DNA of 36,807 nucleotides. Source: Conidiobolus incongruus B7586. Lineage: Eukaryota. Positions within the stretch are counted from its first letter, which is position 1; the number at the start of each line of letters is the position of its first letter. Under the pieces are notes generated by a model, which saw only the letters and a list, made by a program, of their open reading frames with translations, had not been told where the DNA came from and did no database searches. The stretch lies in assembly GCA_000697335.1 (NCBI GenBank), contig JNEM01011478.1:1-36807 (forward strand), given 5' to 3'. The position numbers and the translations under genes were made by a program. Below are positions 1,820 through 36,807 of this stretch, piece after piece.

Positions 1820-4450
1820 ATATTCATATTATAAAACCTATTCAGCTAACCTTCTTTTATTTTACTTCCTATTTATTTATACTTTTAAGAATTTGATAAT
1901 GTACCCAAATCCCTTAAATTATCTATCTTCTGCATAACTCGGGTAGTTTTCTGAAAATTAATATTTGGTAAATTCAATAAAATATGGCCACTTCGTCCAA
2001 ATGGTAGCCGGTGTCGTCGCCGCCCAATACCGCCCCAATTGCGGTGGCAGTGTCAGGATTGGGATTGCCATCGTCCTTCCTGATATTTTCGAAGTAATGG
2101 GCAGTGGTCATATTCGACGATGACCATATGATTTTGAGTTTGAGGAAAGTGAGGGTCAGGAGTACCAATTTGCATTTGATGTAGCCTTCGTTGATTGCGA
2201 TTCGCAATTCGGCAATGACTTTCAGTGAGAATGTTCTAGCTAGGTCGAATTCGATGAAGAAGATGGGGTGTTGGTAGTATTGCGACACCGCTTCAATTTG
2301 GCCATATAGGTGTCCAGATGCGATGGGTTGCACAGGATCCAGCAGGTTTTTGTGTTCGATGCAGTAGTCTGGAGTTAGGACGTAATCTCCTACTACTAAT
2401 GTACTGGGTGCTACTTTGAAATCCTTTTGGTGCAGTGCTGATGGTAAAGCCCTGCGAAATTCTCTCTTATCAACAAAGATAGCTCGGTTGTTAGTGTATT
2501 GATATCCTGCTATACGTGTGAGTTGATCTGGCAGATTGAGTAAATGGTCGCTGGAATCGAATGCGGTGAAATCTTGAACAAGGACTACCATATTCGCTTT
2601 CTCCATGATTAACTTTTCAAAGGCTTCATTCTCCTTAAAAATTCGTAGCAGGAAAGTTTGCTCTATGAAACTGTCTTTATACACAAGAAAATACAATTTA
2701 ACACTGATATCAGGATTCAAATTTTGGTACATTTCCACTTGACGAATGAACATGGAATTGGGAACTGTTAGAACAATTTATTGAGGTTGAATTCTAGTAA
2801 AAATATGTGAATCGCTATAGTCAGTATGAAAAGGTTTGATTAAAAGTTCAACAGTTTTGGGAGATCCTGTAAGTACTCCAAGCACTTCAGTGAGCTCTTT
2901 AAGTATAATGACTCCATCATTGAGTTTCAGTTCGAAATTAATTCGAGGTTCCTCGGATGCATCATCTTGTTTTCCGTTAATTCCGCTGCTATCATTGTCA
3001 ATATTACTACTTACTGCTGTAGTAGACGATGCAGCTTGCGAAGCTTTTCTTACTCTTCTTCGTTCGCTAGCGGGTACTTGTCTACCAGGAACTGAAAAAG
3101 AAACAGAAGTGATACAAGGACTGCCATTTCTGATGATATATTTCTTAAGGTTGCAAGTTGCTTCTTTCCAACTCCAAAATGCGTCGTACTTGGACTTGAT
3201 CATATGATGAGCATCTTCCTCATTGGGCTCTTAATCCCCTAAGTAGCCCTGGATTTGGAGACAGACTTGAGGATCTTCCCTAAGAATTATTACTTTCACG
3301 GAGTCTTGGCATACTGAACTGTGATGATGTAGGTCAATTTCGATCTCCGCAATCAATTTTTAATTTGGCGCCATTTGGGCTACTCTTCTAAAGTAGAAAC
3401 AATTTCTCGATCACTATTATCTGGCATCTTAATATAAACTCTATGCTGAGCGGCAACCATCAGAAAATTAGTAACATCAGATAACATACAACCACTAAGG
3501 TTATTACTGATTTGTGAACCCAACAAAACCAGATGCAAACTTTCAAAAAAAAGTGATGGAATCTTAATGAACCAAATACTCCAACTACAATCTCAATTTC
3601 CATAGATTATTCACAGCTTGATTAATCTTGAATCCGACCCTATACCAAATAATCCTCAACTTGACCTTAATGAAGGGTAAGAACGCTTTCGAAATGCCCA
3701 AATCCAGGGTCAAACCATCCTCAATACCCATGAGCAGTTTGCAACGATTTAATTCACCAAAGTATATTTCCAAATAATCGAGAATACCCTACTGTATCAG
3801 CGCCATGGACTTAGTCAATTTCACATTAGTTTCCACGACTTCTGGCACGTTCGCTCGATTTCTTCGCTGACTTCAGTGTGGAGCCGAGGGTATAGCATAC
3901 AGTTGCGAGTTTGTAGCAGCTTAAAACATCTTTCAAGTGTGTTGAATCTTGGACTCAAGACTGTAGGGCTATCTGAAAATGCATAAATAAAATCATCCTA
4001 AATAATAATCAATTTCAATATTTAAACAATTCAAAATAAAATTACTTAATTCCTCTTCCTACACATACTCGCCATAAACACCTCCGGACAATTGAGTTTC
4101 AATGCATAATTCTTCAAACTAATCAATCTCGTAACTCAATCGGTAAGCAACTTCCCCATAACGATATCCGTAACCAAAATCCTGATCGTGACCACGTGTA
4201 CACCGCCCATTTTATAAAGCCCCTCCTTCTGCTGGGGTGTATTCCACATGTTGCTCGACTTTATTGGACTGTTTCCGATCTTTTGCACGGGTATTTGACT
4301 GTTATCATGATTTAGTAACAGGACCAAATGCTTGTTAGTGTTGTACAGTTGGGCTGAGTATGAGGATTTGCTTGAGATCCTACCCAGGTGCTAGAATTAC
4401 AATGTTAACTTCTAATGTGAGTTGAGTTAGAATAATTCTCTTATTATTAT
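1820..4450 (-). pseudogene. RAD1: Degenerate XPF/Rad1/ERCC4 structure-specific endonuclease; ends approximate
   Basis: Colinear fragments across several frames: N-terminal VILAPG*DL, LYKMGGVHVVTIRILVTD, FIYAFSDSP...LYPRLH, FIRQVEMY...LYFLVY, nuclease region VDKREFRRALP...VGDYVLTPDYCIEHK...SGHLY, and HhH tail LLNLPNIN after a frameshift near 1980. Several stops and frameshifts. Confidence 0.85.
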
Positions 4451-6174
4451 AATAAAATATTATTTACTCTAATTCAAAATTATTTTTGGGGCTTTTAAGT
4501 ATTCAACCCAAAATTCAATGTGGTTTAATGTACTTTGAATTCAGTTGTATTAATCATGGAATTTGCTAATTTAGAATTATAGACTCTGATATTTACGCAA
4601 TGCCCAATTTGCTCGAATTATGAAAATCAAACAATGACTTTTTTGACAATTTGATAACATTTGTTTTCTATTTCTCTAAGAATTTTTTTTAATTATAAAA
4701 GCGATTTTGAAATTTTTATTAATATTATATTATTTGATAATTAAATTTATTTAAGTTTCAAATTTCTAAATTTACTTTTGAAGTAATTTTATGATTTCCT
4801 GAATCTAATTAAAAGTTAAAAAAAATTTACCAAATTATAAGATTTATTTCAATAATAATTATTATATATAGCTAGACTATAAATGTATAATTTAGTATTA
4901 TATTAATATGCAAAATAATAATATGTTAAAATTTTTTATCCAATTTCATTAAATAAATAAAGTTGGAAATACAATTAATATTTATTTAAATCATTCTCAT
5001 ACATAAACTTTCCAATTTTAGTAAATATTTAAAGTATATACTAAATTTTATATTTCTTCAAAATACAAAGTTATTTTAGGTTTTAATAAAGGGTTTAAGC
5101 TTTTTATTTGTAATAATTTGTATAAGTTACTAAATATAGAGCGATATTTACTGTATATATAATATATAAACAATTTTTACATCTTAAAACTTTTGAATTA
5201 ATTTAATGTCACTTAAATGGTACTTGTAAAACTTTTTAAGCTAGTAAAAAGCAATGATTTTAATGTAAATTTTGCAATTTTTAAAAAAAACATTATCGAA
5301 TTACATGATATAGTGTTATTTCAATATAATGGATTTAATGAATATAATTTAAATATATAAAAATCTCAAAGCTCTTATTCTCAGTTATTGAAATTATTAA
5401 CTATTATTTCGTTTACCATGATACTCCTTTTGAAACATTAATCTAATATTAACATTTCGAAATTTATATGTCAAAATTTGATACTCTAATATACCTTATT
5501 AGTTTTATTAGATCATTAATTATATCCTATTTATATTATTATTAAACATTATTTTATTGTATAGGTTAAATCATAAATCTTCATTCTTTAAACATAATAA
5601 CTTTTTAACTCCCTTGAAAAATTGTCTATATATCATAATAAATATTTTGACTTTATAAATCATTATTAAACATAAACTTTACGAACATATGATTTTAAAT
5701 TGAATTAAATCCGAAATTAACTATTAAAAAACTCAGGATATTTAAGATCATTGACAATATTAGATCATTTAAATAGCACAAAGTTTTAGAGTTAGTAATT
5801 TTACAATTTAATAAATTTCTAAAATAATACAATTTGGTAAATGTGTCTAGTATTTATAAAAAATATTAATTAGTATTTCCAAATATTTAAAGCCTAAAAT
5901 TTCTATAAAAAAATAATCTTAAAAATGTAATAACACTCAATCAATATAACATTCATGCATATTGTCTAAAATTATTTAAATTGACTTTGCCATAATTAAA
6001 ATTTTTTGCTTTTAAAACAAATTTAAATTGATTAATTATTTATAGTTTGTCTATTGTGTGTAACTGTATTAATTAATTAACTACAAAGCATCCTCTTTTT
6101 TACATTATAATTAATTTGATATTAAAAAATAATTTTAAAATGTATTTTTTATCAAATTAAAGCTTATAATTGAA

Positions 6175-6207
6175 TATTACCATAGAATCAAAGAAATAGG
6201 AAATTTT
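6175..6207 (+). repeat. Left terminal inverted repeat of the mariner, including the TA duplication
   Basis: TATTACCATAGAATCAAAGAAATAGGAAATTTT versus reverse complement of 7440-7472, TATTACTTTGTAATTTAAATAATGGGAATTTTT. A further TAAACAT match lies on the same diagonal. Confidence 0.7.
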
Positions 6208-7470
6208 TTAATTTCTGATTTTTTAAACATATTAATTTCAAATAACAAAATATATAAAAAACAAATAAGAAAATAAATAATTTTGAATTATATATATATA
6301 TAATAATTTTATTAATTAAAAAAATAATTTTTTAAAATTGGTTATTTAATTTAAATATACTTAAACTAAATAATAGCCATCAAAAGTTTTTTATTTTAGT
6401 ATTAATAAAACTTAACTACAAACCCTTTAAAATCATTTAAAATTTATAAGTAGCTTTTAATAATAAAATATTATTTAAATTAATTATTTATTATTAGGTA
6501 AATTATTTTAAAGTTAAAAAAAATTACTTAAAATTTATTAAAATTTAAAAAATTAATTTTAATTATTATTCTTTTAATTATTAATAAAATAGTAAAATAT
6601 TAAAAAATATCTTTTTATTTTAATTAAAAAATTATTAAGATACTTTAATATTAATTATATAAGTAATTTATATATATTAAAGTTTAAATTAAAATTAATT
6701 AATAAAAATATAAAATAAATACCTTATAATTTAATTAAAGCTTAAAAAAATTAGAGTAATTATTATTAAATAAAATTTACTAAGGTATAATTAGAAACTA
6801 AAGCTTTTATAATAAATTATTATATTTAATAAATCTTAAATTTTTTATATAATCTTTTATTAAAATATAAATTAAAATATTAAATTAAGTTATATTAACC
6901 TTTTCTATAAATTCTTTTATATAAACACTTTATTAATAAATAAATATTAATTATTATAATTTATTATAATAATATATACTAATTTTATATAATTTTTAAA
7001 ATAAAATTAATTAATAATAAACTTTATATTTTTTAAATAAAATTATTTTTAATTAGTATTCTCAATATAATTTAAAAAAACTTATTATTTTGAATAATAA
7101 TTATAAAATATATAAATTTAAAGTTATAAAAAACTTTTTAATTAAAAACAACTAGAAAAAACTACTACATCTAATATATTCTTTAGATTATAACTTATAT
7201 AATTATAATTGTTTTAAGCAATTAAAAAACTAGCTTATAAGAAAGAAAATTTCTACAGGAAAATTTAATTGGTTTATAAAACATTAAATTTTAATCTTTA
7301 AAAGAATTGTTTTTTAAAAGTTAAATCTTTATTAAAAGTATAGCAAAAAGTTATTAAAAATAAAGGAAATTAATAATTTTATAATATATATTTATTTTTA
7401 CATATTATATATTAAAATGTTTATTTATTTTTAATCACAAAAAATTCCCATTATTTAAATTACAAAGTAA
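6177..7470 (+). mobile_element. Full-length, hypermutated mariner (Tc1/mariner DD34D) transposon relic, 1294 bp, TA target duplication
   Basis: TA at 6175-6176 and 7471-7472; removing the element and one TA restores the GS reading frame. Degenerate TIRs match at about 23/33. Reverting transitions recovers mariner motifs in order: WIPHxL (6716), IITFDESW (6816), xDNxxxH (7093), WExLPHPxYSPDYNPCDY (7153-7206) and WQKVIxNxG (7341). D7096 to D7201 gives D34D spacing. Confidence 0.88.
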
Positions 7471-7472
7471 TA
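7440..7472 (-). repeat. Right terminal inverted repeat of the mariner, including the TA duplication
   Basis: Inverted partner of 6175-6207; it ends exactly where GS homology resumes. Confidence 0.7.
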
Positions 7473-10144
7473 ATATGTTAAGACTTAAGTGTATTAATCA
7501 ACTGAAAAAAGCTGAAAAATTGTGAAAATGTTAAAGTGGTGGGTCTTAATATCAATGGTGGTTTGAAAGGTAAAATTATCAGTATTGACAAGTTTTGGTG
7601 TTGTGTTAATGGGAATAGGGGATTTGGTAAGTTAAATGACTAAATATTATAATCCACTGGTTAATTGCTGCTATTAGGTATGTGTTCAGTCATATTCAGC
7701 TTCTACATGGATGAAAAACCCTTGGTCTTACCAGGTTATGGCAGCAAAAAGGACGAGTACCTAGATCTAATCGCTATGATTGATTCAAAATCGTATCGCA
7801 ACATATTTTGGGAAGACAATACTCCCATTTCCTACTAGATTTCTACTCGAATCCTCAATAAAATGTGGTAGGATGCTCGCGATACTTGCTGAGAAGCACT
7901 ATTGAAAAATTAAATGCTAAGAGCTCTTATCCCATGACTGGTATAGAATTGCAATGTCACAATATTAGAGGGACGCCTGACGAGTTATACGATTCCAATT
8001 TTAAATTGAAACCGATTGCACCGGGTACCAGTGTTATTCGTTGTCAAAATCTCATCTCAATTTGGATTATATCAATGAAATTCTTGATAAAGTTAAACAG
8101 ATAGATATTAAAATTTAAGGTGACTACACCGAAACTGGATCGGGTATCTTCGAAACTACGTTGGCTTATACCGATGCTTTGAAGCTTGCTGACAATGCCG
8201 TCCTATTCAAAGATTTGGTGAAGTAGATCGGTCACAAGCATAAGTTCATTCCATCACTCATGTCGAAGCCAATTGAAGTTGGAGCTGGAATTGCAAGTTA
8301 CATACATTTAAGCTTGTTTGACAATTCAAACAAGAATCTACTCGCTAGCACTGATGGCACCAAACCTTACAGTGAAATACAAGAATGGTTTCTAGCTGGA
8401 CTTAAGGAAGGATTTGGATCTATATTGTGTATCGTGGCGGCCAATATCAACAATTATAAACGCTTCAACGAGAACTTTGTAGCACCCGCACGCGTCAGCT
8501 GGGGCATTGAAAATAGGAATTCATCGGTGCACGTGATCATACCGCCAATATGCTCGCCAAAGTCTACTCGGTTAGAAATCAGAGCACCTGGCACAGATTG
8601 TAATCCCACTCTTGTCATTACCGCGGTGTTAGAGTGTGGATTCTACGGCATTGAAAATCGATTGAAAAATCCACTACCACCATTGAAGGATTTGAAGACT
8701 ATATCAAATACCCCGGTATGGTATTCCCCAGAAATTTGAAGGATAGTATTGCACTTATGGATGCTAAAGACTCTATTGCTAGAAAAGTACTAGGGGACGA
8801 ATTTGTAGATTTATATGTTCTCAGCAGAAAAAATGAAGTGCTGGCGTGGGAGGAAACTGTCATAGATTGGGAATTAAAAAGATATTTGGAAGTAGTTTAA
8901 ACATTAAATATTATTATAAACTGGTTGATTCAATTTGAATATTTTTATAATATCGATGTAGAATTGATAAATTATCTATTAATAAAATAAAAATATAGTA
9001 ATTTGAATTATTATATTTAGTTGGACATATCTGGTTAAATTTAAATAAGCAATAAAGACTAATACCAAATACTGATTGAATCAGCTAGTTTAATTTTAAA
9101 AATTTGATCATAATATTAGATATGTTTATAATCTAAAACTCTATCATAAATTTTTAAAATGACGTATTTTAAGTTTAATTTTAACCTTAACAAATAAGAT
9201 TTCTTAATCGGAATTTTCAAATTAATATTCATACCTTTATCGATACTGACACTTAATCGGTATTACAATTCTTAGTTATAGGCAATTCCTTGTATTATAA
9301 TATTGAATAACTACTTAATTTTTGTATTTTAATTATCTATTGAATTTAATAGTATACCAAAATTAAATTAGAATAAGCATTGAAATTATACAAAAGCTTC
9401 AGTGTTCGATTTTAGATAAGGATAATTCAATATTTTTTATTATGAAAATTATTATGACATATTTGTTTCTTGAAGTAAAATTTTTATTATTCAAAAATTA
9501 TATACACTATGTAATTTGGCATTTGTCTCATAAATATATTCAATTACTTTTTAGGTCATAATTCTTGCAAATTATTATTCTATGAAATAATTCCGAATCA
9601 ATTGATTCAAAAAGTATTAAATATTTGGATTAAATTAGAAAATAATTTCATCATTTTGGAATATAATTTTTATTAATGATCTTATTCATACAATGGTGCT
9701 AAATAAATCCAAAAGAGTCATATTCAAAGTTAAAACAGTATAATTATAAAATATAATATTTATTATTGTACAGGTTCCTTGTTGAAATTTTTATAATTAT
9801 ATATACCTTGTAGAGAAGTCCAGGATATTTGAATCAAAATGACTTAATTATTGAATTGATAATTACTATTCCAATGATTTTAATTTAAACATATATTTAC
9901 AAATAAAACTTCAAAAATGACTTCATCAATGCTTAAATCTGGTATGATAAAATTTAAATGAAAATAAAACTTCACTATTTTTATTATAAAAATTATTACA
10001 CTAATTCAATATCATTTATCTCATTTAAAATACTTGAAAATGACGTAAAAATAATTTTCAACTCTATATAAACTGCAAATCACTGATTATTATTCAATTA
10101 ATTATAATAATACACAATTTAACAATTAGCATTACTCAATAATC

Positions 10145-11617
10145 ATGTACTTTTTATCTAGTGAAAATTTATCACTTAATAATTCATCAAAAACTACAAA
10201 GATTAATGAATTAAAAGAAAAGCTGAAAGATTGTGATAAAGTGAAAGTGGTAGGGTTAGATATCAATGGTATTATTCGAGGTAAAATCATTAACATTGAC
10301 AAATTTTGGCATTGTATCAATGGGAATGGTGGTTTTGGTAAGTTGAATATCGATTTTTTATAATATGTTTAATTAACCATTTTATTAGGAATGAGTTCAG
10401 CAATTTTTGGTTTCGATTTAACCGAAAGATCTTGGGCTATACCCGGTAAAGTTGCTAATAAAAAAACTGGATATCAAGATTTGCTTGGGATGATTGATTT
10501 GGACTCTTATCGAATCATACCTTGGGAAAACAATATTCCAATATTCCTATTTGATTTTTACGTGAATCCTGACAAAAGACTTGAGGGATGTACAAGAGGA
10601 TTATTGAAAAATATTATCGAAAAGTTAAATTCTAAGGGGTTCTATCCAATGAATGGGATTGAAATGGAGTATTATAACTTTAAAGGAACTCCTCAAGAGT
10701 TATATGACTCCAATTTTAAATTAACACCAATTGCACCGGGTACAAATTGCTATTCCTTATCCAGACCTTACCTTAACCTTGATTATTTCAATGAGATTCA
10801 AGATAAAGCTAAGCAAATAGGTATTAAAATTGAAGGTCACCATACTGAATCCGGATCAGGAATCTTTGAAACTGCTCTAGCGTACACCGACTCTTTGAAG
10901 CTTGCCGATAATGCCGTTCTTTTCAAGGATTTGGTGAAGCAGATCGGTTACAAGCACAAGATCATCCCATCTTTCATGCCTAAGCCAATTGAGAATGGGT
11001 GCGGAACAGCAACTCATATTCATCTTAGCTTATATGATAAATCTAACAACAATGTGTTTGCTAAAGCTGATGACTCTAAACCCTACAGCGAAGTGTTAGA
11101 ATGGTTTTTAGCTGGACTTATGGAAGGATTTGGATCTATCCTGTGTATCATGGCACCCTATATCAACAGCTACAAACGCTTCAACGAAGATTTTTGGGCC
11201 CCTGTTCGTGTCAGCTGGGGTATGGAAAATAGAAATGCATCGGTACGTGTGATTACACCTCCAGTATGTGCGCCAAAGTCTACTCGTATTGAAATCAGAG
11301 TACCTTGTGCCGATTCCAATCCAAACTTAGTAATTGCAGCCATTCTAGGATGTGGATTCTACGGTATTGAAAACCAACTGAGAAATCCGTTGCCTCCATT
11401 GGATGATTTTGAAGATTATTCTGAATATCCTGGTATGGTGTTCCCAAGGAATTTGAAGGATAGTGTCGAACTCATGGATGCCAAAGACTCCATTGCCAGA
11501 AAGGTATTTGGGGATGAGTTCGTTGATCTGTATGTGATTAGTAGAAAGAATGAAATTCTGGCATGGGAGAAAGCTGTTACTGACTGGGAAGTTAGGAGAT
11601 ATTTGGAAGTTGTTTAA
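10145..11617 (+). CDS. Type I (GlnA/FluG/PuuA-like) glutamine synthetase family protein, about 473 aa
   Basis: Exons 10145-10337 and 10389-11617. Motifs GLDINGIIRGK, GIEMEY, HTESGSGIFE, FMPKP, HIHLS, NSYKR, SWGMENR, IEIRVP and VTDWEVRRY. Confidence 0.9.
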
Positions 11618-11946
11618 AGGATTAATATATGACATTATTTTATTAATTGAACTATTAAATATACATTATATTGTTGATTATATCAAGACAAAATTATTCA
11701 TTTGGAATAGTTTTTTATATAATTGTGGGAATTTGGAAGGAAATATTAATAATATTGAATATAGTATTGATAAAAATGAAGCAAACATCTAATTAATGAA
11801 GGATGTATTCAATGTTGTTGAACATTATAAATCTAATTCAGTGAAAATTAATTTCAATGATATTATGAATTGGTGATGAATTAAATTCTGAGATTGAGAT
11901 AATTTGATATTGGACGAAAATATGAATATTAAAATTGTAATGACAA

Positions 11947-19931: not shown

Positions 19932-21211
19932 GCACCTCTAACTAATATATATACATTTCTTTGACTTAGCCAATAAAGTTTGTCAAAGTAACCCCGAAGC
20001 GTCCATCCTAGCATTTCGGTTCTCCAAGATAGAATTATCATATTAATCTATTGTTTGTAATCCAATGAATATACCCCAGTTTCCATTCTACAAGTACTCT
20101 TATTTGATTTCCACTTCCATATTGCATTATTAATTTATTTTTATGTATTAGATTGGACTTTATTTTTGTCTTAGATTTAGTTTCCTTGTTCCATCTCTAT
20201 CAACAATTTTTTTCGGATTCATTATTTTTTATTAGCTCGAAAAGTCCTTCATTCAGTATTTATATTTTTGCCGATATAAGATAGGTTAGTTTAATATTCT
20301 TCCAATTTGATTTTTAATTCATGTCACATTTATATTATTCTCAGTTTTCATATACAATATATTTTGAACTAAATAATCAGATTTATTACTGATCTGACAA
20401 TGTGGAAATATTTTAAGCTATCTAGTACCAATCATGAATCAGAATATTTGATCAGTTCTTTTGATATAGCCACTTTATTATATCTTCAAGAGTACCGTTT
20501 AGCTTTCTTACTTGACTAATATTCTGATAATACACTAAACATAGGTGTAAAGCCCAATATTAAATTTAATAGATAATATTTACTAAATATATATCTTATT
20601 ATATCATTTTAATGATTTAATCATCCTGCGTAGTAAATTCTTTTCTGCTACAGTTTTACCCTTTTAAACAAAGATCAGGTAACGTTAGGAGTTAAAATAT
20701 TTGTCATGTTTAGTATCAACTCTTTTCACAGGTGAACTTTATAAAAATCGAAATAAATGTTTGATTCAATATTTTGATAAATAATTAATTGATCCAAAGT
20801 ATTGAAATTTTGATAAAAATGTATATTTCATCACCTTGTGCATTGAAAATATTAAATGACATATCTTATACAAAACAAAAACTAATATTATAAAGTTTTG
20901 TTTTTGATATTTTATCTGCAAAATAATCCTTTGGATTTTAATTTTAATTCCTAAAGTTACCAAATTTGAAAATATACTAACCAACCGCAACATTATTATA
21001 TTTAATACTATTTTAAAAATATTGATATTTTATTTTTTCAATTGTTGAATAATTTAAATGATTATTAAATTATCACTAGATGATATGTATTCATTTTAAT
21101 ATATATTGTAAACATATACCTATTTCAATTATTCAATATAATATTCAAAACGAAATATAGAATTTAACAAATCAATTTATGTTAAAATGGATAAAACAAT
21201 AACAATCTTAA

Positions 21212-21214
<3 letters not shown>

Positions 21215-21247
<33 letters not shown>
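21215..21247. repeat. (AT)16 microsatellite
   Basis: Perfect AT run. Confidence 0.9.
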
Positions 21248-21248
<1 letters not shown>

Positions 21249-22421
21249 CGATATACATAATCACAATCAATATTATTAAATTTGATTAATTATATTGTTT
21301 TTTTGAAATATTTTATTAAACAAACATTCATTTGATGCTATTGAAAGAAAGATAATTATTGTTTTATACTCTATTTTATTAATTCTAATATAGATTTTTA
21401 ATTTTTATATTAATTAAATTACTTTTTACCACTATCAATATATTATAATGATTATGCAAATATATATTTGACATACATTGCTTTGTATAAAAATTAATTA
21501 TAGATAATGAAATATGTGCTCACTGTATGATTTCCCAATACATATCTTGTTAGTAATTAACATTATATGAATATTTTTAAATTCAATATCTGAAAAATTA
21601 ATAGGATAATAATCAAATTTTAATCAGAATATATTTTGATATTTCATTTATTCTAATTCATCCAAATTATTAAACAACAATACTGTTTATTGAATAAATA
21701 TCATTGTGTATATTAATTTGTATTAATTTATATGTAAAATGTATAGAAAAATCCTATTTTTTATGGAAAATTTCTTATTTTAATATTTCGATATAAAAAT
21801 AATTTTATCATACAACCCATATTAAAAAATTATTAGCTTTACAAAATAATTATATTAAATCAGAAATGTTTTTTATTTTAAAATCTAATTTATCCATATA
21901 ATGTTATAATGCTCGCAATAAAATGATATATACATGCTTAACTTCTAGACGGTGTCTTTAGTAGTATAGTAGCTATTAGTATAATACTTGCTTAAATATA
22001 GCACTTTTTTAAGAGTTTTCCCAAAAATTGTCACCCTTTCATCTTGGCAATATTCAAATTTTCTCAATCAAAAATAAAAGAAATTAATGAATAATGTAAG
22101 CCCAATTACAATAAACATAACAATCATAAATACAATTATGTTCAATTGGCTGCCTTTAATGCATATATCTTAGTTTAGTTTAATACAAGATGTCAAGTTT
22201 AATTCTCCCAATAATATTTTATTAAGTTACTTGCTTAGGATAAGGGGCTTGATCTGCTATCATATATGGGCATTAATTCCAAAAATTTGCTAAATTATGA
22301 AATCATCCCAAAGATTAATGGAGAAAATTATGATGTAATGGCTATCATGTTTATAATTTTGTTTGATTTTTTAATCAATGAAAGTATGATCACTCTTTAA
22401 TTATGAATAAGATTCCAAACA

Positions 22422-23828
22422 ATGACAGACTCAGATGATTTAAAATCTGTAGCTAGCTTAATACTAAATTTTTCTTTAGATTATTTAGATACTAAATATT
22501 TAAAAGGTTTTCGTTTGGTTTGCAAATCGTGGAACAGGAGACTATCACCAGTTGTTTTTGAGCATCTGAATTTAATTCCGTATTCCGATACTGCTTTTTG
22601 GAGAAGGTATCAGTTACCTTATTTCACACCTAGCGAAATATATATTTCTACTTTAGTTAAGACTCTATCCGATTATGTTCAGCATACAAAAAGTTTAAAT
22701 ATATCAGGACGGTTCACTCTTAATCTTCCCGTCATTTTGTCTAATCACTTTAATTCAGTAACGAGTATTCAGTTAAACAATACTACAATGTGCCTTACGT
22801 TATTCTCGGATTTGACTCATGTTCTAAATAACTTGTCGGAGTTAGTGATAAAGAATGTAATTTTAGAAATGGATTCGGATTGGGAGGAATCACCTAAGCC
22901 ATTATTTCCCTCAAGCTTAAAAGTTCTTAATATCAATACATTCCACGATTACTTCGACTTTCCTAAAGATCTCTGGTTTACTAAAAATTGTATAGAATCT
23001 CTGGCTATTACAAATAATGCACAATCCATATTAATTCCATTTTATTCACAAATTCATAGCTTTAAACAATTTATATGGAAGAGAAGGTTCGAAGTCTCGG
23101 GGATTAGCCAATTTGAGTCAACGATAGATCACAATCCCCAACTTGATACCATTTCACTTAGATACCATTCTATGCTAGTCTCTACTCTTGATAACATTGT
23201 GTCTAATCTACCTTGGAAGAAACAAACCATTCGATTGGATAGAATCAAGCTCTTCGCGAATTACCATACTCCACTTGAGACGCCTATTTATTTTGAATTT
23301 GGAAATCTTGTTAATTTAACAGAGTTTAAACTTTGTTTTACACCAATGATCTCTCTCCCATCGATCCATTCATTGCTATTGGGATGCAAGAAATTGACAA
23401 CACTGGTGCTCTATTTGGAAGAGATTACTCAACTTGAAGTAGATTTGATTGGTATGAACTGTCCAAATTTAAAATTACTATCACTGGGCGCAAACAAATT
23501 TAACTCATCCAAATTTTTCCAAACTCAGTTCCAATGTAAAAATAAGTTAGAACAATTATATTTAGAAAATTTAGAATTCAACATTGATTTAATTGACTTT
23601 AAGGATCAGTTTAAAAATATGATATATTTCTCAATCTTTAATACTTTCGATAGGTCAACTGAAGAAATTCAAATGTTACGAAATCAGTTCAAGTCTATTA
23701 ATTGGAGTTTCCAATGTCAATGGAGGTTTGAATTTGGTTATAGTTTTGGTTGTATCATTTTTAATCCTTTGAATTTACCAAAGCACTATAATTACTATGC
23801 TAACACTATTAATGATTTATATTTATAA
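22422..23828 (+). CDS. F-box / RNI-like leucine-rich repeat protein, 468 aa, intronless
   Basis: Long ORF with N-terminal F-box-like LDYLDTKYLKGFRLVCKSWNR and LRR-like units (LNNLSELVI, LVNLTEFKL, CKKLTTLVL, CPNLKLLSL, KLEQLYL). Confidence 0.8.
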   Translation: MTDSDDLKSVASLILNFSLDYLDTKYLKGFRLVCKSWNRRLSPVVFEHLNLIPYSDTAFWRRYQLPYFTPSEIYISTLVKTLSDYVQHTKSLNISGRFTLNLPVILSNHFNSVTSIQLNNTTMCLTLFSDLTHVLNNLSELVIKNVILEMDSDWEESPKPLFPSSLKVLNINTFHDYFDFPKDLWFTKNCIESLAITNNAQSILIPFYSQIHSFKQFIWKRRFEVSGISQFESTIDHNPQLDTISLRYHSMLVSTLDNIVSNLPWKKQTIRLDRIKLFANYHTPLETPIYFEFGNLVNLTEFKLCFTPMISLPSIHSLLLGCKKLTTLVLYLEEITQLEVDLIGMNCPNLKLLSLGANKFNSSKFFQTQFQCKNKLEQLYLENLEFNIDLIDFKDQFKNMIYFSIFNTFDRSTEEIQMLRNQFKSINWSFQCQWRFEFGYSFGCIIFNPLNLPKHYNYYANTINDLYL

Positions 23829-29433: not shown

Positions 29434-29572
29434 ATCAACTGCAGAGTTGATAATGTCAATTTAAAATATTCTACTGTAAATTTTATATTAGTTTAAAATG
29501 ATAATATAGTTGAATCATTTCATAAACAATCACAAAATCATTTTTATTTTGTTTGTACTTAATAAATTATCA

Positions 29573-29596
29573 ATATATATATATATATATATATAT
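29573..29596. repeat. (AT)n microsatellite
   Basis: About 12 AT units. Confidence 0.85.
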
Positions 29597-30673
29597 TCTT
29601 GTAAAAAACTATTAAAACCAATATTAACAAAATTAGATTTTAAAAATATAATATATGATTTTACTAATATGAACACTGTATTTAACTATATCTTAACCTT
29701 GAAATCGATTAAAACTGTAATATGATTATAAAGATTGATCAAATCGTTGAATAGTTTCTAAATTTAGGAACATACGTATATAAATCAGTTTTGATCATAT
29801 TTTTGAATTTCTCTGATCTCAAATACCCATTTCATTATTCAAATTTAATTAAAATCTATTAATGATAATGAAAATACTATTAGAATAATTGACTTCAGAA
29901 TGTTGATAATTCCAACCCATACATTTTTAAATATTATCTACTAACTCTAATGTATTAATATACTTTGATTTCTATTAATTATTTTTCAATGAGATCGGTT
30001 TTAATGATCTAATTCAGCTTATTAATTGTAAAAATCTATACTAAAAATATAGAAAATGTATATTCAATAGTTATGTGAATAAAATAGAATATATTATTTA
30101 AGAGCATATAAAGAATACATAATAGATTGATTATTAATATTTAATCATTGTATGTAATATTATTCCATGAACTCTCAATCAACTGAATAAAAATTTTTCT
30201 CCAATATTTATTAAATTGCAATTATAATTCAATTATTAATTCTATAACTAGAAGTACCACTATTCAATTATTATCTTAATCATTAATTTGGTGTTTTTAT
30301 CGATTAGTTGATATAATAAAATATACGAGTCAATAGTAACAACTTATTATAATATTATATTAATATTCTTTTTTATTTTTAAGAACTGTCTCAAAAATTT
30401 TTCAAATTGTGTTTAATATTTAAAATTAACAGTTTTCAAATTTAAACATATTTCCAAATTTAGACAAAATTTAATTAAATAGAGATTTAAGTTTTAATTT
30501 GAAATTAAATTGCTCATTCAAAAATAAATTCCCGATATTTTAGTGTTTAGTATATAAAGGATTGAAGGGTAAATACAAGTTTTACTTTTTTAAAATATTG
30601 TTACTAACTTATTATTATATTTATTATAATTTTATATAATTTTTAAGTTTTAATAATAATAAATTGATAAAGG

Positions 30674-33420: not shown

Positions 33421-36400
33421 TTAAGCTCTACCACTTCTGCCACTAGGAGCCAACACATGTTGCAAACCGTCGGGAAGATTGGGTAACTGAAGTTTGGTAG
33501 CGTCTGCAGGGGAGGGCAAGAAGCCGACGTGGACCAAATAGCTCAAGTAAAGGGGAATAAGGTCTTGCATAGGCCTGCATTTGACATCTGCATCCCATTG
33601 TTGAAGAAGTTGGACACAGTTGGTTTGATCGAGTTCTGGAGATTTAGTGGAAGTGGGTAAATCGTCGAGGACAAAGTGGAGAAGAGGATACAAAGCATTG
33701 TCTTGGTCGCTGAGCGTAACATCCATGAGAATATCTCTCCAGGTGACATAATCTTCAGTTTGGACATTGTACCCATATTGACTTAAGAAGTCGAAGAATT
33801 GGTTGAATTGGAATGGATGGGGGTTGGAGACGTGGAATACACCACGAGAAACTGAGATACTGGGATTGACAGCTGCTCCGATGACGACATCGGCAACGTA
33901 GTCGACTGAGCACATGTTGACGCGGTTGGTCATCGATGGAACCTTGCCTATTTGAACACATCCTTTGATTAAGCGCCACAAAAAGTCGTCAGTAATGGAA
34001 ACACCAGTTTGACAGTCGCCTACAATGTAACCTGGACGAATAATGGTTGCATGGGCACCCTTGGCATGAGCGTCCATGATTAATTTCTCACAGACCCATT
34101 TGGTTTGACCATAACCACTTCTTAATCCATGCTGACTTCCTGTTAAATCATCATTTTCAGGAACACCCATGTAAACAGGGTTCTTGCTTGAAAGGTTCAT
34201 TTCAGATAATCTAACATAATGTTCAGTGTCAAGGACACTAGTTGATGAGACGAAATGGAATCCCTTCATTTCCCCAGGGTTGCTGATACTCAATTTGAGT
34301 GCTTCCAAGGTACCCATAACGTTAGCATCCTTCAACTTACTATATGGGAATACCCAATGGACGAAAGCACCGTTGTGAATAACTGAATCAACCTTGGATT
34401 TCAATTCTTCCCACATAGTATCGGAGACACCCAGTTGAGGCAATGCCAAATCACCTTGAACTCCTATGATTCTATTTTCATATCCAGATTGCCAAAGCAA
34501 ATTGGATTCGAGATTGCTCTTGATTCTTTCGTAAGCCTTCTCGTCTGATTGACCTCTAGCGAGACAGTAAACGATAGCATTGGGATATCTCTGCAGCAAT
34601 CTAGCTAAAATAAATGAACCCAAGAAACCAGTAGCTCCAGTTAAAAAGTAAACGGGCTTCTCAGGATGAGGCATTCTAAGCTTGGGAGCAGTTTCAGGTG
34701 TCCAAGAACTCCATGGAGCAGATTGTGCCAATTTTTGGAATTCGCCAGAATAATCGAAAATCTCTTCTTCAGAGTGATCAGGTTCCAAAGTTAATTTTTG
34801 AAGAGTGGGGGTAGAGATAGGTGTATTGCTAACCAAGTTGAGATCGATATTTTTAATTCTGTCAATTTCAGAGCTCATTTTTTCAATTGTTGGATGGTTG
34901 AACACCAAGCTCAAAGATACATTAACTGCGAAAGCTTGACGAATTTGAAATAATAAGCGAGTGGCTAAGATTGAATGGCCTCCAAGATCAAAGAAGTTGT
35001 CTTCTAAATCGATAGAGCCTTTAATGCCAAGTACTTGAGCCCAAACTTGGTGAACTGCTTTTTGAGTTGAAGTGAGGTTTTCATGAACTTGCTTAGACTG
35101 ATACTTGGAAAGGTATTCAGCAGTATCCGGGAATGGTAAAGCATTCTTATCAATCTTACCGTTAGGAGTGAGAGGCAACTTGCGTAAAGGAACGATCAAA
35201 GTTGGAACACTGTAAGATGGAAGTTTTTGCTTGAGATAGTTTCTAAGATTTCTGATCAATCTGGTGTATCTTCTTGGAGGACCATCTTCATCGGCTTCAT
35301 CGGTACTCGTTTCGTCAGCTTCGGTACCGTCGGCTTCGTTGGGAACAAAATAAGATATTAAAGTTTGTTCCTCATTTCTGTCTCTCTTTACTAATGTAAC
35401 ATTTTCACGTACACGAGGATGCTGACTGAGATGAGTGTCAATTTCTCCCAACTCAATTCTAAATCCACGAATCTTGACTTGATCGTCAGCTCTACCAACA
35501 CATTCAACAGTTCCATCGGGCAAGTATCTACCCAAATCACCACTCTTATACATTCTATCTCTAGCACCTAAATAAAATGGCATTGACTCGTCATTGGTGG
35601 GAGGTTCATTAGCAAACCAATTGGTTTGGAACTTCTCCTTGGTGACATTATCCAATCGAAGATAACCTTCACTTAATCCACTGCTTCGAACATAGATTTC
35701 ACCAGCTTCGCCTACGCCGCACATTCTTCGCTTGCCATCCTTATCTGCCATTCTACTGACGACTAATAATTGCACATCTATCATACCTTGACCAGCTGGT
35801 AAAACATCCTTGACAGAGCTCAAGAAGGATGGGTGTGTAGATTTGGGAGGGATTAAGTAATAACTGACAGCTCTTTGTGTTTCTGTAGTTCCGTACATAT
35901 TGATGATTCTAACATTGGGAGCGAATTGTTGAAGCCTTAAGCAATCTCTCTTAGTCAAAATATCTCCAACAAAGAAGATATTGAAGAGGGACGGGATCTC
36001 AACCTGAGCATTAGCTGATAACAGTTGTCCCATAGCTGGTGTCAAGTGGGAGGTAGTGACTTCGTTATCACGCATCCATTGTGCCAATTGACCAGGAGTA
36101 GTGATAATATCAGGATGAGGAATTCTCAATTGAGCTCCCAAAAAGAGAGGAGTGAAAATATCTCTCTGGATAGGATCATGAGCAATTCCTGAAAGCATAG
36201 TAAACTTGTCATGCTCTGATAAGCTGAATTTTTCAGCCATCCAAGGGTAAAAGTGAGTTAAAGAGAAATGTCTTCCCCTTACACCCTTGGGAATACCAGT
36301 ACTACCACTGGTAAATGAAAGTGTAGCTACGGAATCAGGTCCAACTTCAACATTGACATCATGATCACAAATTTGTAGGGGCTTTTGAACAGAGTCTTCT

Positions 36401-36807
36401 TCATACACCAGTGAACCATCGTCTAAAAGTTCAAGGCCAGATAACGTGCATTTGACATCCAATTCTTTTTCAATGTACTCCTGAACAGATGGCAATAACT
36501 CACCGGCTCTCTTCAAATTTAGAATAGCTGTAGGTCTAGCGACTGAAAGATAAATATTTTGACGTTCAGGAGGATATGCAGGATCTAAAACATTGAAGGT
36601 AGCACCACATTTTAATATACCCATCACACCAATGACTAAATCTACACCACGATAGGCATACATAGTGACTACATCTTCCCTTTGAACACCGCCATTTAGC
36701 AGAAACTGAGCAACTTGATTGGATGCGTGATTAACTTGAGCGTATGTAAAAGTTCGTGTTCCAGTAACTCCTACATTGATATCAAATAATGTCTCTATAA
36801 GACAAGG
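33421..36807 (-). CDS. LYS2: Alpha-aminoadipate reductase (A-T-R domains); 5' end lies beyond the window
   Basis: The frame is open to the window edge. Motifs LSFTSGSTGIPKGVRGRHFSL, LSGIAHDPIQRD, NMYGTTETQRAVSY, YKSGDLGRY, carrier motif FFDLGGHSILA, reductase LTGATGFLG and GYGQTKW. Confidence 0.97.
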   Translation of the reverse strand, partial: PCLIETLFDINVGVTGTRTFTYAQVNHASNQVAQFLLNGGVQREDVVTMYAYRGVDLVIGVMGILKCGATFNVLDPAYPPERQNIYLSVARPTAILNLKRAGELLPSVQEYIEKELDVKCTLSGLELLDDGSLVYEEDSVQKPLQICDHDVNVEVGPDSVATLSFTSGSTGIPKGVRGRHFSLTHFYPWMAEKFSLSEHDKFTMLSGIAHDPIQRDIFTPLFLGAQLRIPHPDIITTPGQLAQWMRDNEVTTSHLTPAMGQLLSANAQVEIPSLFNIFFVGDILTKRDCLRLQQFAPNVRIINMYGTTETQRAVSYYLIPPKSTHPSFLSSVKDVLPAGQGMIDVQLLVVSRMADKDGKRRMCGVGEAGEIYVRSSGLSEGYLRLDNVTKEKFQTNWFANEPPTNDESMPFYLGARDRMYKSGDLGRYLPDGTVECVGRADDQVKIRGFRIELGEIDTHLSQHPRVRENVTLVKRDRNEEQTLISYFVPNEADGTEADETSTDEADEDGPPRRYTRLIRNLRNYLKQKLPSYSVPTLIVPLRKLPLTPNGKIDKNALPFPDTAEYLSKYQSKQVHENLTSTQKAVHQVWAQVLGIKGSIDLEDNFFDLGGHSILATRLLFQIRQAFAVNVSLSLVFNHPTIEKMSSEIDRIKNIDLNLVSNTPISTPTLQKLTLEPDHSEEEIFDYSGEFQKLAQSAPWSSWTPETAPKLRMPHPEKPVYFLTGATGFLGSFILARLLQRYPNAIVYCLARGQSDEKAYERIKSNLESNLLWQSGYENRIIGVQGDLALPQLGVSDTMWEELKSKVDSVIHNGAFVHWVFPYSKLKDANVMGTLEALKLSISNPGEMKGFHFVSSTSVLDTEHYVRLSEMNLSSKNPVYMGVPENDDLTGSQHGLRSGYGQTKWVCEKLIMDAHAKGAHATIIRPGYIVGDCQTGVSITDDFLWRLIKGCVQIGKVPSMTNRVNMCSVDYVADVVIGAAVNPSISVSRGVFHVSNPHPFQFNQFFDFLSQYGYNVQTEDYVTWRDILMDVTLSDQDNALYPLLHFVLDDLPTSTKSPELDQTNCVQLLQQWDADVKCRPMQDLIPLYLSYLVHVGFLPSPADATKLQLPNLPDGLQHVLAPSGRSGRA

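Follow-up and report, generated by a model that had tools for sequence, protein, structure and literature searches.

A two-strand, CpA-led C-to-T mutation scar in a dead mariner transposon of a fungus outside the Dikarya

The window (the whole 36,807-nt stretch of DNA that was analyzed) holds a dead mariner transposon, directly followed by a broken duplicate of a glutamine-synthetase-like gene. The intact tandem partner of this gene and an RPN5 exon lie further to the right. The features to which the text refers are the following.

5712-7754, no strand: CpG-free stretch of 2,042 nt, the longest of the window, covering the element and about 460 nt to its left and 280 nt to its right
6175..6176, no strand: left TA target-site dinucleotide, from the sequence and from loose ends of other copies before 6173/6175
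6177..7470, plus strand: full-length mariner (DD34D) relic of 1,294 bp, about 9% GC, from profile alignment, terminal repeats and TA flanks
6177..6209, plus strand: left terminal inverted repeat, degenerate and of approximate length, with 24/35 matches to the right end (TA counted)
6354..7373, plus strand: broken transposase frame with HTH region, WVPH-like motif and DD34D core, from profile alignment
about 6434-6926, no strand: core free of CpA, TpG and CpG, with 34 C/G that are all in CpT/ApG or CpC/GpG (P = 5e-12)
6828..6830, plus strand: first catalytic Asp column, now AAT after T, from profile alignment
7096..7098, plus strand: second catalytic Asp column, now AAT after T, from profile alignment
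7201..7203, plus strand: third catalytic Asp column, now AAT after T, 34 codons past the second
7438..7470, minus strand: right terminal inverted repeat, degenerate and of approximate length, from the inverted match to the left end
7471..7472, no strand: right TA target-site dinucleotide, where the best inverted match to the left end stops
7457..8911, plus strand: glutamine-synthetase-like copy (PF00120), broken, adjoining the right end of the element, at 74% identity to the intact copy
10166-11630, plus strand: intact glutamine-synthetase-like copy (PF00120), the tandem partner, at 74% identity
14276..15340, minus strand: RPN5 exon, used to place the host

Elsewhere in the window, XPF/Rad1-like frames with an ERCC4 domain (1974-3230, minus strand) are split by a stop at 2778 and possibly represent a decaying copy, presumably with odd residues in the nuclease motif. 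A 473-residue single-exon ORF (22407-23828, plus strand) is F-box/leucine-rich by eye, with no Pfam family at E 0.001, and the intronless 1,128-residue ORF that runs off the window end (33421-36807, minus strand) is one we take to encode a LYS2-like aminoadipate reductase. Two short self-complementary low-complexity runs, at 21207-21263 and 29558-29598, are probably TA microsatellites.

Standard searches with stops read as X returned nothing for the element. Pfam gave 0 families in all six stop-masked frames, two PDB searches gave 0 matches and 1 chance match, and protein-database searches yielded 163 and 485 candidates, none of them a match at E up to 10. A profile of intact mariners was therefore aligned to the window DNA instead, with frameshifts allowed. 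The first set of mariners had the motif in frame at 14 of 19 loci, 11 of which were used. Another 150 proteins were fetched later, and 44 of these, selected as full-length (335-370 residues, with a conserved SPD motif), make up the profile. Without any directional mutation model the window scored 56.7 bits, compared to 16.3 +/- 1.7 bits for shuffles. The score rose to 79.9 bits when C>T alone was modeled, to 95.8 bits with G>A alone and to 124.5 bits with both, while the C>A/G>T control gave 15.9 bits. A profile blind to the identity of purines and pyrimidines, and thus directionless, still reached 41 bits, albeit over the C-terminal part only (60 shuffles reached 24.5 bits at most, and 52 other tiles 21.6). 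The best tblastn match of 11 intact mariners against the DNA had E = 0.002.

The element is thus a dead mariner (DD34D) transposon. It had been called a mariner from the sequence alone, and the score of 56.7 bits in the absence of a mutation model, against about 16 in shuffles, bears this out. The extent given at that stage, 6440-7140, was too small, however, since the element occupies 6177-7470. It shares with the Tc1/mariner DD34D family the size of 1.3 kb, the TA flanks, the terminal inverted repeats and the D, D(34)D spacing. Intact DD34D mariners, in which Pfam HTH_48 and Transposase_1 are present, differ in being alive: here all three catalytic Asp columns read AAT and the motif after YSPD is off consensus. 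The transposase frame contains many TAA and TAG stops and about five frameshifts, the column of the start Met is ATA (6357), and at two of the frameshift sites (6840-6843 and 7028) other copies carry extra letters.

As for the borders, the 24/35 repeat match is the best on the plus strand of the window, but one match of 23 and six of 22 are found elsewhere. Being barely above the AT-rich background, it leaves the element ends to rest also on position and element size. The left border is further backed by contigs of other copies, which begin to fit at 6173-6190, and by a single-copy contig that ends at 6204. The read-contig comparison covered 5900-7340; the right border at 7470 falls beyond it and rests on the inverted-repeat match.

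No close intact relative of the element was found among the mariners compared, the top score among the 144 intact ones being 56 bits (P0201). A scan of metagenome contigs with a degenerate element pattern gave 0 loci, two of three scans of viral contigs came back empty and the other gave 2 chance matches (phage), and there were no Rfam families in 5600-7800. As a side observation, mariner transposase genes, several of them intact, were seen on contigs in bacterial genome bins (L008-L025), where they are probably eukaryotic contamination.

The composition of the element core is highly unusual. A hand count in the sequence-only reading had given about 29 G/C bases in 6481-6900, none of them in CpA, TpG or CpG, and the exact count agrees: the 420 nt contain 29 G/C, of which 25 are in CpT/ApG, 4 in CpC/GpG and none in CpA/TpG or CpG. 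The contrast drawn with intergenic DNA also holds, as 53.5% of C/G lie in CpA/TpG/CpG in 27 AT-rich tiles of 420 nt elsewhere in the window, with 45% in the lowest tile. Compared to this expectation, 0 of 29 has a binomial probability of 2e-10. Shuffling 6481-6900 20,000 times gave a mean of 14 such sites and a minimum of 5, and zero was never reached. The longest run free of CpA, TpG and CpG in the window is 6434-6926 (492 nt) and the second longest (137 nt) adjoins it, while such runs outside the element reach 70 nt at most.

Sliding dinucleotide indices had been proposed as a check, and the composite RIP index, applied here to the window, gave the same picture. The four 500-nt tiles of the element rank first to fourth among 146 (1.11, 0.88, 0.81 and 0.46), followed by a tile at 0.31. 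As first noted, the depletion fades towards the element ends, where CpA/TpG accounts for 13 of 32 C/G in 6175-6434 and for 15 of 45 in 7141-7470. In the flanks CpA/TpG is at or above expectation (38 versus 29, and 41 versus 32). The feature is thus real, and the CpA loss is confined to the element. As regards confinement to repeated DNA, only the high-copy element scores within the 36.8 kb, i.e. one element in this window.

CpG erasure, on the other hand, had been read as part of the same signal and does not stand as a separate one. No CpG is left in the element, but merely 2.8 would be expected from its base composition today, and the gap without CpG (5712-7754) extends beyond the element on both sides. 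CpG loss is therefore no element-specific result and was dropped as such; the statistical weight comes from the loss of CpA/TpG, not CpG.

The CpG-free stretch is of some interest in itself, since its 2,042 nt are 3.6 times the next-longest gap of the window (562 nt). The probability of the CpG loss in the flanks depends on the flank width, and was 0.045 for 200 nt, 0.009 for 250 nt, 0.011 for 300 nt, 0.08 for 400 nt and 0.18 for 500 nt. Among CpGs of the glutamine-synthetase-like paralogue, 0 of 5 are kept near the element versus 12 of 24 further off, although only 1 of those 5 shows CG>TG. A methylation halo around the element is at most suggested by these figures, at a strength that varies with the width chosen.

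The direction of change was scored at those 64 alignment columns in which 70% or more of the intact mariner proteins agree. Where the conserved codons fix C or G (n = 59) we observed 42 transitions, 6 transversions and 11 kept bases, and where they fix A or T (n = 59) there were 0 transitions, 8 transversions and 51 kept bases. The contrast in transitions, 42/59 versus 0/59, is highly significant (p = 3e-18). Read on the plus strand the transitions are 18 C>T and 24 G>A, and both strands have thus been affected, in line with the matching changes first seen by eye. The individual codon changes listed at that time (TGG to TAG/TAA, CCA to CTA/TTA, CAT to TAT, GAT to AAT and GAA to AAA) are indeed found at columns conserved in intact mariners. 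Conserved Trp columns are now TAG (6495) or TAA (6716, 6837 and 6881), and conserved Pro columns CTA (6905 and 7171) or TTA (6553, 7183 and 7195). A conserved His column is TAT (7111), Asp columns are AAT (6532, 6828, 7096 and 7201) and a Glu column is AAA (6831).

With transversions omitted, CpA was lost at 25 of 26 sites and CpT plus CpC at 17 of 27 (p = 0.005), in an alignment that was itself built under a C>T model. Moreover, for 18 of the 25 CpA sites counted as lost the context is that of the present-day neighbor, and former CpG may be among them; the former third codon bases are not known. Of the CpA/CpG context originally claimed, the preference for CpA is therefore retained, while strict CpA/CpG specificity is not, as CpT and CpC have also been lost. 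In short, the element records a directional loss of C to T on both strands, led by CpA, in a repeated element of a host outside the Dikarya.

The broken duplicate next to the element served as a comparison. This left glutamine-synthetase-like copy has stops and frameshifts and starts at the right end of the mariner, the insertion of which may have disabled the gene. Its C>T differences from the intact copy fall on 54 of 214 CpA and 55 of 173 CpT (p = 0.17), i.e. without CpA bias, and background change at the locus is accordingly not CpA-biased. The two copies are 74% identical, which is below the 80% required for RIP, and the duplicate was formerly under selection, so the missing scar does not exclude recognition by pairing.

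The host had been suspected to lie outside the Dikarya, and this proved correct. The RPN5 protein of the window is identical to that of Conidiobolus coronatus (KXN75071.1) at 329 of 353 residues (93%), and no Dikarya are found among the best 120 of 3,510 RPN5 matches. In a quick tree of 52 of these 120 matches plus the window protein, a set that holds no Dikarya, the host and C. coronatus group as sister to Entomophthora muscae plus Neoconidiobolus (SH-aLRT 88). An RPN5 scan of metagenome contigs gave 5 loci at 47-63% identity and no close relative. Judged from this one gene, the host most likely belongs to Conidiobolus (Entomophthorales), as a species distinct from C. coronatus. The RPN5 matches and the identity to C. 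coronatus rule out an ascomycete host.

Other copies of the family were sought in reads, consisting of four runs of one sample that contains the window and is possibly its source; the runs are not independent of it. About 15,000 of the 490,000 contigs of one run (X1) fit 5900-7340 at 80% identity or more, and each run gave about 15,000. Summed depth across 6145-7320 was 8,600-311,000, compared to 24 for the single-copy flank contig, a depth that does not translate into a copy number. From this we infer that the mariner family is very abundant. The method leaves out copies that are less than 80% alike, and less-mutated copies would be among these. The 506 variant places in X1 comprise, from C/G, 99 C>T/G>A and 19 transversions and, from A/T, 223 T>C/A>G and 165 transversions. 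The raw sums of 322 transitions versus 184 transversions are near the 194 versus 129 of the unaffected gene duplicate.

In 21 of the 40 variant rows listed (of 577) this copy has T/A where 69-95% of the depth has C/G. These rows differ by location: in the interior 13 of 13 are TpT, and at the ends 7 of 8 are TpA (p = 7e-5, with the borders at 6400 and 7220 chosen by us). This pattern suggests that interior CpA was already exhausted in similar copies, and that CpA loss at the ends continued copy by copy after amplification. The same 40 rows include 11 mostly private A/T transversions, which together with the roughly five frameshifts mark this copy as old and the process as a long one. At either end of the element roughly 200 nt (6177-6400 and 7220-7470) keep CpA/TpG here and, within 5900-7340, in most other copies. 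The sparing could be due to proteins bound there, to a border in the chromatin, to the edge of the paired region, or to selection in favor of copies that remain mobilizable. The literature passages searched hold no support for RIP fading at repeat edges, and the spared ends were therefore not taken as evidence for pairing.

What kind of process left the scar? The sequence-only reading had named true RIP and deamination of non-CpG 5mC on transposons as the alternatives. The process behaves like RIP but cannot be classified as such. With somewhat better than even confidence we attribute it to a transposon-targeted C-to-T mutator, likely of DIM-2 type, on mutation-level evidence from one copy. 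The element copies would be packed in silent chromatin, where a non-CG cytosine methylase would mark C, mostly in CpA and less often in CpT and CpC. Deamination or enzyme-linked mutation would then fix T. Inserted copies would be acted on again and again, with TGG turning into TAG/TAA and CCA into CTA/TTA until the transposase is killed and the copies are driven towards a common AT-rich end state.

The DIM-2 reading is favored since DIM-2 has been reported in early-diverging fungi while RID/Masc1 homologues have been found only in Dikarya, as far as the sources consulted in part go, and since a precedent exists in Zymoseptoria tritici. The age of the copy and the heavy non-CpA loss fit long exposure, the possible CpG-free halo fits a methylated domain, and the lack of CpA bias in the gene duplicate counts for a mechanism targeted at transposons. 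Entomophthoralean genomes, moreover, encode PF00145 proteins (PMC11105155, in excerpt). In Z. tritici transposons undergo Dim2-dependent mitotic CA>TA mutation, with more than 98% of it at CA (PMC8016269, partial text). In both systems the C>T changes at CpA are concentrated in transposons, which are poor in CA and rich in TA. The Z. tritici system has been shown experimentally, in an ascomycete, and is nearly exclusive to CA with CG spared, whereas the present element is from the Entomophthorales, has lost CpT/CpC (17/27) as well and has spared ends; nor is any CpG left in it, though only 2.8 would be expected.

Several observations count against the DIM-2 reading. One is the heavy CpT/CpC loss as compared to the near-exclusive CA of Z. 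tritici, although the non-CA losses could be added by long exposure. Zoopagomycota are described as poor in 5mC in the passages available from PMC11258239. The same passages report that Phycomyces has DIM-2 and DNMT1 and transposon-targeted CG and CHH methylation, mainly CG and peaking at the element ends. Targeting of transposons in an early-diverging fungus is common to both cases, but methylation was measured in Phycomyces whereas mutation is read here, and the scar is CpA-led and central, with spared ends. Finally, the raw transition excess among the copies is close to that of the gene duplicate.

True RIP outside the Dikarya, in which repeats recognized by pairing are mutated near the sexual (zygospore) stage by a RID-like or convergent methyltransferase, is possible but rather doubtful. 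The order of loss, CpA first and then CpT/CpC, and the complete loss of CpA in the core match RIP of the Neurospora type, and the CpA loss halts at the element borders. RIP in Neurospora crassa and other Pezizomycotina, which depends on RID and DIM-2, shares with the element C>T on both strands, CpA preference, a high composite index and TAA/TAG stops; it acts, by pairing, on duplications of more than about 400 bp and 80% identity (10.1101/2020.09.27.311811 and 10.1101/2021.04.05.438447, both in excerpt). It differs in that the present host is outside the Dikarya, the family is very abundant and the flanks show no CpA loss, whereas DIM-2-dependent RIP spreads, as the excerpts describe. Related Entomophthorales are reported to have a high RIP index as well as RID-like domain architectures, which speaks for RIP, but the candidates cannot be read as RID homologues according to the paper that reports them (PMC11105155, in excerpt). 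Likewise, C. coronatus is without repeats of at least 1 kb at more than 95% identity in one assembly, yet the same source scored it 'no_rip' (PMC12543289, in excerpt). That RID/Masc1 homologues have been found only in Dikarya argues against RIP, as does the very high copy number reached by the family. Canonical RIP is, besides, a premeiotic process. The linked 1.4-kb gene duplicate without a CpA scar also argues against it, although weakly in view of its 74% identity and past selection. Should Conidiobolus nevertheless have a true RIP-type defense, with repeat recognition and CpA hypermutation to saturation but without canonical RID, which we regard as a tentative proposition, it either predates the split of Entomophthoromycota and Dikarya or was built twice. 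Kingdom-wide k-mer screens would then miss RIP in genomes where the DNA between genes is very AT-rich to begin with.

A methylation-independent deaminase (AID/APOBEC-like or other), acting on transposon DNA or transposition intermediates, is quite improbable. Its action would leave nothing but C>T, on both strands and with a bias in context. The bias seen here is on the 3' neighbor (CpA), as in fungal methyltransferase-linked mutators, whereas the context biases of deaminases are usually 5'. Such an enzyme would act without need for 5mC, said to be scarce in this phylum (PMC11258239, in excerpt).

Very improbable, too, is that the element acquired its RIP mutations earlier in a donor from the ascomycetes (or is contaminant DNA in the assembly) and was then copied in trans without further targeted mutation. 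Tc1/mariner elements often move between fungi (10.1101/2025.06.16.659975, partial text), and no read contig spans the whole element, the single-copy contig entering it by only 30 nt. Against such an origin stand the clean TA-flanked insertion between host genes, the roughly 15,000 contigs per run that fit the element, the two frameshifts that are not common to all copies, and the CpA>TpA changes that this copy carries at its ends, at sites where C/G is kept by most copies (7 of 8, among the 40 rows listed of 577).

The least credible explanation is neutral decay under the AT-biased mutation pressure of the genome, for although intergenic DNA is merely 13-22% GC and the copy is old, with indels and transversions, the element core has 7% GC, below every intergenic tile, the adjoining broken gene duplicate has no such bias, and neutral decay as the cause of the CpA loss is refuted, barring an equal loss in single-copy dead DNA of similar age across the genome, by the share of C/G in CpA/TpG/CpG, which is 45% or more in AT-rich tiles versus 0% in the core.

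The lack of precedent implied by the sequence-only reading was overstated. Index signals and RID-like architectures in Entomophthorales are described in PMC11105155, and the Z. tritici mutator in PMC8016269, both consulted in part. The passages of the former give a RIP-index signal of 24.2% in Zoophthora radicans and of 2.4-5.7% in three relatives, with major caveats, and its RIP analysis omitted C. coronatus. That work concerns the same order of fungi, and the same dinucleotide skew was proposed there as RIP outside the Dikarya, but its excerpts give genome-wide index values only, whereas direction, strand and context are read here from conserved codons in Conidiobolus. As excerpted, PMC12543289 found RIP signatures in ascomycetes only and no AT k-mer enrichment in the repeats of C. 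coronatus, and 10.1101/2025.06.16.659975 has RIP-proficient taxa almost only among ascomycetes. The C. coronatus repeats of at least 1 kb in PMC12543289 number 0 at 95-100% identity and 555 at 80-95%. The excerpt links such a pattern with RIP-like decay; assembly collapse could also explain it. Further fungal literature was drawn on in part (PMC5751038, PMC7862722 and PMC13297926). No report of CpA-directed mutation in Conidiobolus was found in the literature searched, outside of which most subscription papers fall.

Whether RIP-like hypermutation occurs outside the Dikarya is disputed in print, with PMC11105155 on one side and two surveys of the whole kingdom, PMC12543289 and 10.1101/2025.06.16.659975, on the other, as far as their excerpts go. 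What the present element adds is the direction, strand and context of the changes, read from codons, in a genus of which the one species surveyed was scored 'no_rip'. The very large copy family is a ready data set, and Conidiobolus is a culturable genus. Two questions thereby become testable: the identity of the methyltransferase responsible, and the stage at which it works, mitosis or the sexual cycle. An answer either way would date the origin of CpA-directed repeat mutagenesis.
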